Assembly: GCF_050920415.1 (NCBI RefSeq)
Contig: NZ_CP169309.1
DNA length: 64,000 nucleotides
Direction: 5' to 3' (one strand)
Source of the DNA: Escherichia coli
GTDB lineage: Bacteria > Pseudomonadota > Gammaproteobacteria > Enterobacterales > Enterobacteriaceae
Part shown: positions 24,378 to 47,262 of the stretch, in pieces
How positions within the stretch are numbered: position 1 is the first letter of the stretch
Layout: every line of letters begins with the position of its first letter
Notes under the pieces: generated by a model
Seen by the model: the letters and a program-made list of their open reading frames with translations, nothing else
What the model was told of the DNA's origin: nothing
Database searches by the model: none
Program-made: the position numbers and the translations under genes

Positions 24378-24621
24378 TGCGACAACCTCATACTCAAGAG
24401 TCAAAATTTGCGTAATTTTACTACAGCTGAATCGATAAAATAGCCTCTGAAGATCAAAATATACGACCGCTCGCGGCAAGCCGATGCCAGATTTACGCTT
24501 TTTTTTCGTAGCGCCCCGCAAAATTGCATTCCAGTTAACGCGCTGGCTGTATTTGCCGCACCGCGCAGGTATACTCCTTTCCTGGTTTTTTTAATCACTA
24601 CGTCGGGAGTTGTTACCCCCC

Positions 24622-39701: not shown

Positions 39702-40289
39702 TTACTTTTGAAAGGCTTTTTTTAAGCTGATTTTGGAAATCAGCTCTGTCAGTGAAAGGACCATTGTTGATCGCACAGCCTGTTGGTAACGCTGAATTTG
39801 CATTGCATACAAACTGGAGTCTGCGGGTTCAAACTGTGGCGGCGGTGGTAACGCCGCCACACAGTGCAGCTCACCAAAGGGGCCAAGAATTTCGTCGTCG
39901 GTAAAGGCGTACTCATTGCCGTCGTGATTTAGTTCTTCACGCAATGCCATCAGCAGTTCCGCATCTTCATATTCATGGCGGTTAATGACACCCAACCCGT
40001 AAATGAGTTTTAAACGCACAGAAAGATCGCCCAGCGGGCCATCGCCGTCGAGTAACGGTTCTACAGCATACTTCACCGCGTAATCGTCTTTGCGGAATAC
40101 CTGAAGCACCAGAAGATTTACCGCCTCGGTCAAAAGCTCGACGGCGGTAATCAGAAAGCTTCGCACGGTTTTGCCAGCATTCAGACGCTCAAGCACACGG
40201 TTTTCAAAGGCCTGGGTTTGTTCCATTGTTGCCTGCATATCTGACAATCTGTTATTCGGGCGCAGGGAGTCCTGCGCCTGGTCCACCAT
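39702..40289 (-). CDS. mtlR: Mannitol operon repressor, 195 aa
   Basis: [46 protein letters not shown]... Confidence 0.9.
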   Translation of the reverse strand: MVDQAQDSLRPNNRLSDMQATMEQTQAFENRVLERLNAGKTVRSFLITAVELLTEAVNLLVLQVFRKDDYAVKYAVEPLLDGDGPLGDLSVRLKLIYGLGVINRHEYEDAELLMALREELNHDGNEYAFTDDEILGPFGELHCVAALPPPPQFEPADSSLYAMQIQRYQQAVRSTMVLSLTELISKISLKKAFQK

Positions 40290-41801: not shown

Positions 41802-43715
41802 TTACTTACGACCTGCCAGCAGTTCCAGCACTTCATCCACGCTGGTGGTGTGCGCCAGACGCTCGATGACAGACTCATCATCCAGTGCGTTGGTCAGGCT
41901 GGTGATAACCTGAATGTGCTCGTTGTTACGGGCAGCAATACCAATCACCAGACGGGCAATGTCATCTTCTTCTTCACCGAAGCGCACGCCTTCCGGGTAC
42001 TGGCAGAACACCACGCCCGTTTTCAGTACGCGATCTTTCGCTTCAACCGTACCGTGCGGTACCGCGATGGACTCACCCAGATAAGTCGGGGTCAGTTTTT
42101 CACGATCCAGCATCGCCTGAACGTATTCCGGCTCAACGTAACCGCCTTTCACCAGCTGCTCGCCAGCAAAACGAATCGCTTCTTCTTTGGTGGCCGCTTT
42201 GCGACCGAGGAAGATGTTCTCCGCGCCTAGCTTGAACAGGTTAGCACTGGAATCGTCAAAGCTGTCTTTCAGACTGTCTTTCACTTTTACTTCGTTTTCA
42301 GTATGGCGCTGGGCAGCAACCAGACGTTCGGTCAGGCTGGTGTACAGGCCGCTGTCGAGGAAGTTGGTCAGCGAAATATGCTGTGCCTGCGGAACCTGGC
42401 GCATAGCGCGTTCGGTCAGATCACGGTGAGTGATGACGAGGTCCACATCTGGTGGCAGGTTGTTGATCGCGCTGTTAGTAACAGAAATCTGCGACAGACC
42501 AGCATCCTGAATTTTCTTACGCAGCACGCCTGCACCCATCGCACTGGAACCCATACCGGCGTCACAGGCAACGATGATTTTACGTACGTGGCTCAGGTCG
42601 TTAGTCACATCGCCCGCAGACAGCGGAGACGCACCTTTAGATTCAGCTTTCATGTCCTGCATACGACGCGTTGCTGCTTCAATGTCATCTTCTTCTTTCA
42701 CTTTGCTGGTTTTCAGCAGAATGGCAGAGACAACGAAGGAGACTGCCATAGCCGCACACACACCCGCGATGTTAGCGAAGTAAGCACCTTTTGGCGTCAT
42801 CGCCAGTACAGCAAGGATAGAACCCGGAGATGCCGGAGAAACCAGACCACCGCCCAGGATAGTCAGCGTGAACACGCCAGTCATACCGCCGAGGATAACG
42901 GCCAGAATCAGACGCGGATTCATCAGCACATACGGGAAGTAGATTTCGTGGATACCCCCCAGGAAGTGAATGATTGCCGCACCGCCCGCAGACTGTTTAG
43001 CGCTACCACGGCCAAAGAACATGTACGCCAGCAGAACACCCATACCCGGACCTGGGTTAGCTTCAATCAGGAAGAAGATGGATTTACCCAGTTCATGGGA
43101 CTGCTGAATACCCAGCGGCGAGAAGATACCGTGGTTAATGGCGTTGTTGAGGAACAGGATTTTCGCCGGTTCAACAAAGATAGACGCCAGCGGCAGCATG
43201 TCATGGACAACCATGAAGTTAACGCCCGCAGCCAGCATTTTGGACAGGGCTTCAACAATTGGACCAATGCCGAGGAACGCCAGAATAGCGAGGATCATCC
43301 CGATGATGCCTGCGGAGAAGTTATTCACCAGCATCTCAAAACCGGATTTGATCTTACCGTCTACCCAGCGGTCGAAGTGCTTAATGCACCAGCCGCCCAG
43401 CGGACCTGCAATCATAGAACCGAGGAACATCGGCATATCTGCGCCGACGATAACGCCCATTGTAGTGATGGCACCGACTACGCCGCCACGTTCGCCGCCT
43501 ACCAGCTTACCACCGGTATAACCGATCAGCAGTGGCAGGAGATAAGTGATCATCGGCCCGACCAGCTTCGCCAGCGTTTCGTTCGGTAACCACCCTGTTG
43601 GAATAAATAACGCGGTGATGATACCCCACGCGATAAACGCGCCGATATTTGGCATCACCATGTTGCTGAGGAAACGACCAAAGCTTTGCACTTTGATCTT
43701 AATATCGGATGACAT
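41802..43715 (-). CDS. mtlA: PTS mannitol-specific EIICBA component, 637 aa
   Basis: [37 protein letters not shown]...; C-terminal EIIA domain. Confidence 0.95.
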
Positions 43716-43902
43716 AAAAACACCCCTTCTTATGTTTGCTGTCGCGCAGGCTGGAAGCCCGAGGTTTTTTGTTAATGTGGCGGCAGAGGTAGCCGGACCT
43801 TGTTGATAGTGCGAAATCTGGCACTGAATCGGTTAACTGTCCAGTCGACGGCTTTTTGTGTGATATCGGTCACATAAATATAGGGGGTAGAGAGGTAATT
43901 GA

Positions 43903-43918
43903 CGTGATGTGCATCACA
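43903..43918. promoter_or_regulatory. CRP-like site (gtgatgtgcatcacaa) in mtlA upstream region
   Basis: Near-palindromic TGTGA-N6-TCACA-like match. Confidence 0.4.
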
Positions 43919-44019
43919 AAATACTTGTGTAAAAAAGCAACAAGACGGCGATTTTCGCTAAAAATGGTATTTAAATGTGAGTAATGTCACGTTTTTGTTT
44001 TGTTAGTTTGTTGAATCTT

Positions 44020-44035
44020 TGTGATCTGAATCACA
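44020..44035. promoter_or_regulatory. Consensus CRP-binding site TGTGAtctgaaTCACA in the mtlA-yibI divergent intergenic region
   Basis: Exact TGTGA-N6-TCACA palindrome. Confidence 0.6.
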
Positions 44036-44251
44036 AGATATTTTCTTACGGCGTTCACCTGATGTGATCTGCAGCATGTTCTGCCTTCGTCATAAAATCG
44101 TTATGTAACTAAGCAACTCATCACCTCTAAAAATTATTCTTTGGTGTTATGGCGAGAATCGCGAACCCGAATTATTGTCAAAATATCAGCCTGACTCCCT
44201 TCTGGCTGCCAGCCAAAAAACAACACCGATAAACGTGAATCCGAGGCAGAT

Positions 44252-44614
44252 ATGTTTCTAAACTATTTCGCGTTGGGAGTGCTGATCTTCGTCTTTCTGG
44301 TGATTTTTTATGGAATCATCGCGATACATGACATCCCTTATCTGATTGCCAAAAAGCGCAATCACCCCCATGCCGACGCTATTCATACGGCGGGCTGGGT
44401 GAGCCTGTTTACTCTGCATGTTATCTGGCCGTTCCTGTGGATCTGGGCGACGCTCTATCAACCGGAGCGTGGCTGGGGTATGCAGTCACATGTTGCGTCG
44501 CAGGAGAAAGCGACTGACCCGGAAATCGCCGCACTTTCTGACCGAATTTCCCGGCTGGAGCATCAACTCGCCGCCGAGAAAAACGCTGACTATTCCACGT
44601 TCCCGGAGATCTAA
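44252..44614 (+). CDS. yibI: Small inner-membrane protein YibI, 120 aa
   Basis: [35 protein letters not shown]...; directly upstream of yibH. Confidence 0.8.
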
Positions 44615-44616
44615 TT

Positions 44617-45195
44617 ATGGATCTGTTGATTGTTTTAACTTACGTGGCGCTGGCATGGGCGGTCTTTAAAATCTTCCGTATTCCGGTGAATCAGTGGACG
44701 CTGGCGACGGCGGCGCTGGGAGGCGTTTTTCTGGTAAGCGGTTTGATTTTGTTGATGAACTACAACCACCCTTACACTTTTACCGCACAGAAAGCGGTGA
44801 TTGCTATTCCCATCACGCCACAGGTGACGGGGATCGTGACTGAAGTCACTGACAAGAATAATCAGCTTATTCAGAAGGGCGAGGTGCTTTTTAAGCTCGA
44901 CCCGGTACGTTATCAGGCGCGAGTCGACAGACTTCAGGCTGACCTGATGACGGCGACGCATAATATAAAGACGCTGCGCGCGCAGCTCACTGAAGCGCAA
45001 GCCAATACCACCCAGGTTTCAGCGGAGCGTGACCGCTTGTTTAAAAATTATCAACGTTACCTGAAAGGCAGCCAGGCGGCGGTAAATCCGTTCTCAGAAC
45101 GTGATATCGACGATGCGCGGCAGAATTTTCTCGCGCAGGATGCGCTGGTGAAAGGTTCGGTGGCGGAACAGGCGCAAATCCAGAGCCAGCTCGAC
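44617..45195 (+). pseudogene. yibH: yibH 5' fragment (HlyD-family membrane fusion protein), 193 codons, interrupted by IS insertion
   Basis: [23 protein letters not shown]... reading frame runs into IS left end at 45196; the rest of the gene resumes at 47324. Confidence 0.85.
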
Positions 45196-45296
45196 TGTCA
45201 GCGCCAATGATATAAGACAGTAATTCACCATTTGGATTGTCCGCTCCACCCAACATGTTGTTTCCTTAAGGTTCCTACACCACAAAGGGAACACTC

Positions 45297-46343
45297 ATGC
45301 TGAGCAGAGAGGACTTTTACATGATAAAGCAAATGCGCCAGCAAGGTGCGTATATTGTTGATATTGCCACTCAGGTTGGTTGCTCTGAGCGGACTGTCAG
45401 ACGGTACCTGAAATACCCGGAACCTCCGGCCAGAAAAACACGCCACAAAATGGCCAAACTCAAGCCGTTCATGGACTATATCGACATGCGTCTGGCTGAG
45501 AATGTCTGGAACGGCGAGGTCATCCTGGCGGAAATCAAAGCGATGGGTTATACCGGTGGCCGTTCCATGTTGCGTTACTACATCCAGCCCAAACGTAAGA
45601 TGCGGCCATCGAAGAAAACGGTTCGCTTCGAAACTCAGCCCGGTTACCAGCTACAGCATGACTGGGGAGAAGTTGAGGCTGAGGTTGCCGGGCAACGATG
45701 CAGGGTTAACTTCGCGGTTAATACGCTGGGGTTCTCACGTCGCTTCCATGTCTTCGCGGCACCAAAGCAGGATGCTGAACATACCTATGAGTCACTGGTC
45801 CGCGCCTTTCGCTACTTCGGCGGCAGCGTGAAAACCGTGCTGGTCGATAACCAGAAAGCCGCAGTGCTGAAAAATAACAACGGGAAGGTGGTGTTCAACT
45901 CCGGGTTCCTGCTGCTGGCCGATCACTATGGCTTCCTGCCACGGGCCTGCCGTCCACGAAGGGCCAGAACCAAAGGTAAGGTGGAACGGATGGTGAAATA
46001 CCTCAAGGAAAACTTCTTCGTCCGGTACCGCCGGTTCGACAGCTTCGCCCATGTTAATCAGCTACTGGAGCAGTGGATGGCTGACGTTGCCGACAGGCGG
46101 GAACTTCGCCAGTTCAGGCAGACACCGGAACAGCGCTTCACGCAGGAACAGGTGCATCTGCAGGCGCTGCCAGGTACGGACTTCGATACCAGCTACTTCG
46201 ATATCCGTCATGTCTCCTGGGATGGCTATATCGAGGTTGGCGGGAACCGTTACAGCGTGCCGGAAAGCCTGTGTGGCCAGCCGGTATCAATACGGATCTC
46301 GCTGGATGATGAACTGCGATTTACAGTAATGAGCAACAGGTAG
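45297..46343 (+). pseudogene. istA: IS21-family transposase IstA, frameshifted near 3' end (348 aa as read; about 390 aa if the -1 shift around 46313-46343 is repaired, then ending at 46468)
   Basis: HTH N-terminus and integrase-core-like body; alternative frame open from 46313 to TGA at 46466-46468, which overlaps the istB ATG. Confidence 0.8.
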
Positions 46344-46455
46344 CATCGCACCGTCTCTGTTCGGCTGTATACGGCTGGCAGACCGTGCCGGAGCATCACG
46401 CCCCACTCTGGCAGCAGGTCAGTCAGGTGGAACACAGGCCGTTGAGTGCCTATGA

Positions 46456-47262
<807 letters not shown>

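Follow-up and report, generated by a model that had tools for sequence, protein, structure and literature searches.

The mtlA-yibI intergenic region of an Escherichia coli strain: a five-site CRP array that very probably serves the mtlADR operon both as activator platform and as MtlR 'operator'

The region described here belongs to a 64-kb window (the whole stretch of Escherichia coli DNA that was analyzed) and fills exactly the 536-bp gap between mtlA and its divergent neighbour yibI. It shows 100% identity to E. coli strain MFDS1022581, in which the flanking genes are annotated as mtlA, mtlD, mtlR and yibI. The gene assignment of the original prediction, which placed a CRP-rich divergent control region between mtlA and yibI, agrees with this annotated genome and with K-12. 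The genes and open reading frames are the following:

43716-44251, between mtlA (- strand) and yibI (+ strand): CRP-rich intergenic region, 536 bp
41802-43715, - strand: mtlA, encoding EII-Mtl (637 aa), first gene in the regulated operon
39702-40289, - strand: mtlR (195 aa), intact, encoding the repressor that docks on CRP pairs
44252-44614, + strand: yibI (DUF3302, 120 aa)
43856-43984, + strand: small ORF of 42 aa overlapping CRP sites/promoter
43699-43824, - strand: small ORF of 41 aa overlapping CRP sites/promoter

Neither of the small ORFs shows any sign of coding. The region was found in 5,404 of the 5,426 complete E. coli genomes, and the haplotype carried by this strain is rare, with an identity of at least 99% in only 11 of these 5,404. 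IS21-family insertions were noticed at the region; in one E. coli strain such an element is inserted between the sites called CRP2 and CRP1 below.

Five CRP sites were delimited, whose centres are given both in the window and relative to the inferred mtlADR transcription start:

44063-44078, centre 44070.5 (-262.5): CRP1, weak and distal, TGTGATCTGCAGCATG, 7/10 core bases (3 mismatches)
44020-44035, centre 44027.5 (-219.5): CRP2, perfect core palindrome, TGTGATCTGAATCACA, 0 mismatches
43976-43991, centre 43983.5 (-175.5): CRP3, TGTGAGTAATGTCACG, 9/10 core bases (1 mismatch)
43903-43918, centre 43910.5 (-102.5): CRP4, CGTGATGTGCATCACA, 9/10 core bases (1 mismatch)
43859-43874, centre 43866.5 (-58.5): CRP5, promoter-proximal perfect core, TGTGATATCGGTCACA, 0 mismatches

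The centre-to-centre spacings are 43 bp for CRP1-CRP2, 44 bp for CRP2-CRP3, 73 bp for CRP3-CRP4 and 44 bp for CRP4-CRP5; this spacing is no less important than the site sequences. The 64-kb window was scanned for the CRP core consensus TGTGA-N6-TCACA, counting mismatches over the 10 core bases. Only four matches with at most one mismatch were retrieved, all corresponding to CRP2-CRP5 and grouped within 177 bp. The number expected from base composition is 0.018 per 536 bp and about 2 per 64 kb, and the Poisson probability of observing at least four such matches in 536 bp is roughly 5e-9. With up to two mismatches tolerated, 14 matches were observed in the whole window against 26 expected; since there is no enrichment at this level, the signal is that of the CRP cluster alone. 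The sites were also ranked with an approximate position weight matrix, compiled from 15 classical CRP sites of promoters other than mtl. The four strong sites occupied ranks 1 to 4 of 63,979 positions, in the order CRP5 (score 19.3), CRP3 (16.2), CRP4 (14.2) and CRP2 (12.2), i.e. within or above the range of 10.8-17.0 covered by the training sites. CRP1 ranked ninth with a score of 9.0, below this range. Scores of at least 12 were reached by the four sites, against a mean of 0.023 in 2,000 shuffles. The original prediction had named two of the sites by eye, an exact palindrome at 44020-44035 and a near-consensus site at 43903-43918. They are recovered here as CRP2 and CRP4, respectively; its tally, however, was incomplete, CRP5, CRP3 and CRP1 having been missed.

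The published map of K-12 positions CRP1-CRP5 at -262.5/-219.5/-175.5/-102.5/-58.5, with spacings of 43/44/73/44 bp (Lee et al., NAR 2026, PMC13421365, following Ramseier & Saier 1995). The centres and spacings found in the window match this map to the base pair, all five sites sharing one origin. The K-12 mtlADR operator-promoter is the same locus, with the same five sites, the same -35 and -10 elements and the same Cra site. Aligned with K-12 MG1655, the 536-bp region contains 0 indels and 21 substitutions (3.9%), corresponding to 96.1% identity. Within the five CRP sites, the differences affect 1 of the 50 core positions and 6 of the 30 N6 spacer positions. CRP2 has the same sequence in both strains. 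The single core difference lies in CRP3, which reads CGTGA on the mtlA strand here and TGTGA in K-12 (9/10 versus 10/10 core bases), and given this changed base the occupancy of CRP3 could differ slightly from that in K-12. In K-12, CRP is required for mtl transcription, with CRP2, CRP4 and CRP5 being essential, whereas a CRP3 mutation leads only to a slight expression loss and CRP1 is dispensable and poorly occupied; binding of cAMP-CRP to the mtl sites was seen by EMSA (PMC13421365). The mtl region was the second most abundant clone in CRP genomic SELEX (Shimada et al.) and the top CRP prediction in PhyloScan.

Conservation of the array was surveyed using one genome per species (GTDB), and 120 loci were collected with a degenerate DNA pattern for MtlA residues 12-31. 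For the count in Enterobacterales, 60 species with at least 450 bp of upstream sequence were considered and four sites with at most 2 mismatches were required. The four-site layout 43-45/72-74/43-45 bp was present in 57 of these 60 species, at a near-constant distance from mtlA. The three exceptions correspond to one spurious interposed match, one degenerate site, and Edwardsiella, whose spacings are 44/63/44 with a CRP3-CRP4 gap one helical turn shorter (63 bp). Outside Enterobacterales, all 7 Aeromonas loci with enough upstream sequence exhibit 45/73/44. Spacings of 44-45/73-74/43 were found in Zobellella, Tolumonas and some Vibrio and Photobacterium loci, and of 117 (= 44 + 73)/43 in other Vibrio loci, while Gilliamella keeps one 44-bp pair. 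Overall, the spacing of the array is conserved over about 35 genera, and CRP2 is conserved in 69 species. Conservation reaches 92-96% at the core bases and 51-57% in the N6 spacers, a contrast with some circularity in it, since the sites themselves had served to select the loci. When 15 Enterobacteriaceae regions were aligned, the columns without variation fell in the CRP half-sites, in the -35/Cra/-10 block and in the leader, whereas the N6 spacers and the inter-site DNA are variable. A CRP1-type site at 43 bp from CRP2 was restricted to genera of the Enterobacteriaceae type, which matches the poor occupancy and dispensability reported for CRP1. This cross-species scan independently supports, at the sequence level, the published claim that the 43-46 bp spacing is a conserved feature. 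As judged from the same loci, the 73-bp gap between CRP3 and CRP4 is kept as tightly as the 43-46 bp spacing. Catabolite control of the mtl operon, as originally predicted, is thus backed by the sequence, by its conservation across species and by the literature. Neither of the two outcomes that the original prediction named as counting against it was seen: the matrix scores do not fall below threshold, and related genomes retain the sites. The gap includes one further conserved element:

43927-43942, inside the 73-bp CRP3-CRP4 gap: T-run block, TGTTGCTTTTTTACAC on the mtlA strand, consensus tGT..ttttttTacac in 62 species

It is possibly a bend or a Fis-type site. Further conserved non-CRP blocks were seen at 44006-15 and 43875-87.

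The core promoter of mtlA is organised as follows:

43838-43843, - strand: -35 element TGGACA (5/6)
43823-43836, in the spacer between -35 and -10: predicted Cra (FruR) operator, ACTGAATCGGTTAA
43815-43820, - strand: -10 element CAGATT (3/6), after a 17-bp spacer
43808 (+/- 1-2 nt), - strand: inferred mtlADR transcription start

The -35 and -10 elements are both invariant in the 15 aligned Enterobacteriaceae regions. The start was positioned by placing the published CRP centres on the sites of the window, the mtl start having been S1-mapped in K-12. Relative to this inferred start, the proximal site CRP5 is centred at -58.5, 3 bp off the textbook class I position of -61.5. The mtl promoter has been termed class III with CRP5 being class-I-like, and the way in which the far-upstream CRP sites activate is still left unresolved in that study (PMC13421365). 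A generic sigma-70 scan of 43650-44320 did not call the mtlA -10 promoter, as expected for an activator-dependent promoter with a weak core. One terminator-like site was noted in the 43650-44320 scan, at chance level. A sixth CRP-like 16-mer spans the -10 element and the transcription start.

The predicted Cra operator is an exact match to the Cra consensus RSTGAAWCSNTHHW. As 2 matches occur in the whole window where 0.68 would be expected, the motif by itself is weak, and support for the operator comes from its near-invariance across the Enterobacteriaceae alignment and from published data: Cra binding and repression at mtlA have been described, and ChIP-exo indicates that Cra overrides CRP at mtlA. 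FIS is listed as an mtl repressor, yet it was undetected at mtlA by ChIP-chip. The original prediction stated that no other operator could be delimited by eye, which holds for MtlR, since MtlR uses the CRP pairs, but not for Cra, whose operator lies at 43823-43836.

By itself MtlR, which lacks a DNA-binding domain, does not bind the operator (PMC13421365). A supershift by MtlR requires DNA on which two CRP dimers are bound 43-46 bp apart, with an optimum at 44-45 bp, and MtlR binding is gained when the malK sites or the CRP3-4 pair are re-spaced to 44 bp, the spacers between paired CRP sites having no common sequence (PMC13421365). Residues R167 and L178 of MtlR contact CRP, and both the MtlR-CRP-DNA complex and MtlR-dependent repression were shown for K-12 and Salmonella (PMC13421365). 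The MtlR of this strain (195 aa) retains R167 and L178. Among the neighbouring pairs of sites in the window, CRP1-2, CRP2-3 and CRP4-5 have spacings of 43-46 bp, and CRP3-4, at 73 bp, is non-recruiting. No separate operator is visible because MtlR docks on pairs of CRP dimers 43-46 bp apart. Very probably, then, the region is the control region of E. coli mtlADR (mannitol PTS), in which the CRP array acts both as activator platform and as the MtlR 'operator'.

The following sequence of events, drawn from the literature, is inferred for this strain. At high cAMP, CRP dimers on CRP2-CRP5 would activate mtl transcription, CRP5 at -58.5 contacting RNA polymerase and the upstream sites being architectural. 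When mannitol is missing, an MtlR dimer would bridge two CRP dimers (CRP4/5, CRP2/3) and block the contacts between CRP and the polymerase. When mannitol is present, dephosphorylated EII-Mtl (MtlA) would draw MtlR to the membrane, leading to derepression of the operon. In glucose, dephosphorylated HPr would compete MtlR off EII-Mtl, using the same surface, and repression would be restored. Cra would add repression by occupying the core promoter. More speculatively, and not drawn from the literature, the 73-bp CRP3-CRP4 gap with its T-run could keep two MtlR-(CRP)2 units in phase so that they form a single higher-order loop.

Several known systems share parts of this organisation. In the CytR-CRP complexes of deoP2, cdd, udp and tsx, the repressor likewise contacts two DNA-bound CRP dimers and masks their activating surfaces, a form of anti-activation at a class III promoter. 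CytR, however, belongs to the LacI family, has an operator of its own between the CRP sites and is released by cytidine, whereas MtlR, lacking a DNA-binding domain, recognises nothing but the CRP-CRP spacing and is released through sequestration at the membrane. Mlc with EIIGlc (PtsG) provides another parallel, a repressor being titrated to the membrane by the dephosphorylated form of the PTS transporter under its control, with the difference that Mlc binds DNA directly and MtlR is anchored through CRP. The malEp-malKp region also bears a multi-CRP array between divergent genes, comprising four CRP sites plus MalT. Both of its divergent promoters are known targets, whereas support in the mtl region is for mtlA only. 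The mal sites, spaced at 34 bp, recruit MtlR only once they have been re-spaced to 44 bp (PMC13421365). A related layout is that of V. cholerae mtl, with CRP pairs 43-44 bp apart upstream of mtlA (PMC13421365); the Vibrio loci scanned here display 43-bp pairs and the 117-bp (= 44 + 73) distance. V. cholerae adds MtlS, a cis-antisense sRNA directed against the leader, and is without the EII-Mtl sequestration axis (PMC13421365).

Other explanations of the array were weighed against this reading. That the CRP sites are functionless chance palindromes could be argued from the consensus with up to 2 mismatches not being enriched across the window, but four matches with at most one mismatch lie within 177 bp where 0.018 were expected, the spacing persists over about 35 genera, and the published binding and mutational data agree with functional CRP sites, so that the probability left to chance is negligible. 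An older model sees in MtlR a conventional repressor acting through a DNA operator of its own, hidden in the region. It draws on the name and long-standing annotation of MtlR as operon repressor (Figge et al. 1994, via a citing paper), and the conserved non-CRP blocks at 43927-42, 44006-15 and 43875-87 would be places for such an operator. We hold it to be very unlikely, because the MtlR supershift needs two CRP dimers 43-46 bp apart, malK sites re-spaced to 44 bp gain MtlR binding, and the paired-site spacers have no common sequence (PMC13421365), the gap consensus obtained here also being poor. Less probable still is an anti-activation of the CytR type, by a DNA-binding co-repressor sitting between tandem CRP dimers, e.g. 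in the conserved 73-bp gap. The tandem CRP sites and the conserved block in the CRP3-CRP4 gap are compatible with it, as is one 7/8 match to the CytR octamer, GTTGCATT, at 43934-43941. The octamer, however, has no significant match in the mtl region: its matches are at chance level (59 in the window against 82 expected), and the central bases of this one are not conserved. CytR promoters have a CRP spacing of roughly 52-53 bp, not 44 or 73 bp. Repression is moreover genetically accounted for by MtlR (PMC13421365).

The array could also be bidirectional, its distal sites CRP1 and CRP2 activating or modulating the divergent yibI(H) promoter, with yibI in the CRP regulon. The stretch next to yibI is as follows:

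44108-44251, + strand: yibI-proximal stretch without CRP-like site, with conserved blocks at 44148-44158 and 44172-44183

The yibI promoter is probably located in this stretch. Both genes share the intergenic region, and when CRP sites lie between divergent promoters both are often CRP-controlled (Shimada et al.). Promoter-trap clones of yibI from UTI89 were 5.6-fold up in glucose-free urine compared with LB. A second UTI89 insert, covering -144 to +90 of yibI, was also enriched in urine; as mapped onto the window by inference it contains no CRP site, the induction specific to this clone being unreported. A CRP1-type site 43 bp beyond CRP2 accompanies 13 of the 14 loci with yibI as neighbour and only 10 of the 47 without. 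This correlation, however, follows phylogeny, the 10 non-yibI loci with CRP1 all belonging to Enterobacteriaceae-type genera. The distance between the array and mtlA is fixed, whereas the mtlA-yibI distance ranges over 433-663 bp (433, about 535 and about 660), and this variation is entirely on the yibI side. Among the 50 Enterobacterales loci with at least 1,300 bp of upstream sequence, yibI adjoins in only 10, and in the other 40 the array is present without it. Since the array is kept at a fixed distance from mtlA where yibI is not a neighbour, it belongs to mtlA. CRP1 itself is weak, reported as poorly occupied and 181 bp away from the yibI ATG, and in one E. coli strain an IS21-family element separates CRP2 from CRP1. 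A weaker argument is that yibI is missing from cAMP-responsive gene tables that list mtlA and mtlD, these tables being possibly incomplete. The yibIH and mtlA promoter sequences printed in Shimada 2014 gave no match to the window by eye and play no part in this assessment. Taken together, these observations make CRP control of yibI unlikely. The 'divergent control' of the original prediction therefore holds as a description of the geometry, while no evidence of CRP control over yibI was found. We thus read the array as the control element of mtlADR.

Downstream of the inferred start, the mtlA transcript would begin with a leader in which hairpins were predicted:

43716-43808, - strand: mtlA 5' leader, about 93 nt
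43799-43779, - strand: leader hairpin 1
43778-43763, - strand: A/C-rich linker
43761-43747, - strand: leader hairpin 2
43728-43721, - strand: strong Shine-Dalgarno, AAGGGGTG

The two-hairpin layout was obtained in single-sequence folds of 55 Enterobacterales mtlA leaders, with stem sequences that differ. The stems of hairpin 1 are CGGC/GCCG in E. coli, GACGG/CCGUC in Pantoea and Pectobacterium and GACGGUU/AACCGUC in Budvicia. Those of hairpin 2 are CGGGC/GCCUG in E. coli, CAGGU/ACCUG in Pseudocitrobacter and ACGCGCU/AGCGCGU in Yersinia and Serratia. The folding z-score of the leaders is modest (mean -1.17). RNAalifold on MAFFT alignments of the leaders yielded hardly any consensus structure (-1.9 kcal/mol), as the stems cannot be aligned by sequence, and an Rfam scan of both strands of 43400-44600 gave no match with E <= 1. 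The predicted folds are suggestive of a conserved two-hairpin leader structure. It is a tentative and rather doubtful proposal that the leader carries an undescribed post-transcriptional element, made of hairpins flanking a single-stranded A/C-rich (ARN-like) linker upstream of the Shine-Dalgarno. Such an element could serve as an entry site for Hfq/sRNA or as a 5' structure protecting against RNase, as an enterobacterial counterpart of the MtlS control of Vibrio. MtlS is reported absent in E. coli (PMC13421365), and an mtlA antisense RNA has been reported in the literature. A promoter-like site at 43709-43736 (+ strand), antisense to the mtlA start, was discarded: it is at chance level and its -10 is not conserved in other Enterobacteriaceae, so that we do not propose an MtlS-like antisense promoter.

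The mtl CRP control region has already been described and nothing in the finding itself is new. Its value is mainly that of a control: among the strongest CRP targets of the E. coli genome, one was spotted by eye, and computation recovered the published five-site map to the base pair. To this map the scan across species adds that the 73-bp gap appears to be held just as tightly as the paired spacings and that the array belongs to mtlA, not to yibI. In the strain analyzed here the circuit is intact, with regard to the spacing of the sites, the promoter, the Cra site and the MtlR contact residues. This strain can therefore be expected to follow textbook mannitol regulation, despite its rare haplotype and one weakened base in CRP3.

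The mtlA leader and the conserved segments surrounding the CRP sites were delineated as follows.

Features of the mtlA leader and of the mtlA-yibI intergenic region
43716-43808, minus strand: mtlA leader, comprising two hairpins, an A/C-rich linker and a strong Shine-Dalgarno sequence
43799-43779 and 43761-43747, minus strand: the two predicted leader hairpins
43778-43763, minus strand: A/C-rich linker ACAUUAACAAAAAACC, predicted to be single-stranded
43709-43736, plus strand: sigma-70-like site ATGACA-16-TATGTT, a chance-level match
43810-43825: sixth CRP-like 16-mer TGCGAAATCTGGCACT, with 3 mismatches and PWM rank 6 out of 63,979
43875-43887: conserved block CCCCCTATATTTA, adjoining CRP5
43927-43942: conserved T-run block TGTTGCTTTTTTACAC (mtlA strand), inside the 73-bp CRP3-CRP4 gap
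44006-44015: conserved AACAAA block, adjoining CRP2
44148-44158: block TATGGCGAGAA, conserved among species in which yibI neighbours mtlA
44172-44183: block TTATTGTCAAAA, conserved among the same species

According to structure predictions, the two-hairpin layout is common to 55 Enterobacterales leaders, the stem sequences differing between them. The statistics of these folds were modest (mean z of -1.17), and no Rfam family matched the leader at 43716-43808. A transcript initiated at the sigma-70-like site would run antisense to the mtlA leader; the -10 element of this site is not conserved. For E. coli, an Hfq-binding antisense RNA to mtlA has been reported (PMC2887942).

The sixth CRP-like 16-mer overlaps both the -10 element and the transcription start site of mtlA, and is located at a distance of 49 bp from CRP5. 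Several Enterobacter species exhibit a counterpart with 2 mismatches. The conservation of this 16-mer is inseparable from that of the promoter itself. The three conserved non-CRP blocks lying among the CRP sites are possibly bend or Fis-type elements, and the two blocks on the yibI side are probably part of a putative yibI promoter or regulator site. Elsewhere in the window, the only exact Cra consensus match besides that of the mtlA promoter was GCTGAATCGATAAA (24426-24439).

The intergenic haplotype (43716-44251) is rare, being found at 99% identity or more in only 11 of the 5,404 E. coli genomes; nearly all the others carry a version with 95-99% identity. Within CRP3, one half-site reads CGTGA in the window versus TGTGA in K-12. 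Downstream of yibI, the HlyD-family gene yibH is split by the IS21-like element ISEc62 (istA/istB) in the 100%-identical strain MFDS1022581 (locus L001, 6902-9547), and corresponding ORFs are visible in the window at about 44617-47262.

In E. coli GPEC1054, an IS21-family element (istA/istB) is inserted between CRP2 and CRP1, at the equivalent of window position ~44051, leaving CRP2 to CRP5 joined to mtlA while cutting off CRP1 together with yibI. Upstream of mtlA in Edwardsiella hoshinae, the CRP sites are spaced by 44/63/44 bp, versus 44/73/44 bp here. This array is shorter by exactly one helical turn, a hint of a constraint on how the two CRP pairs are phased relative to each other.
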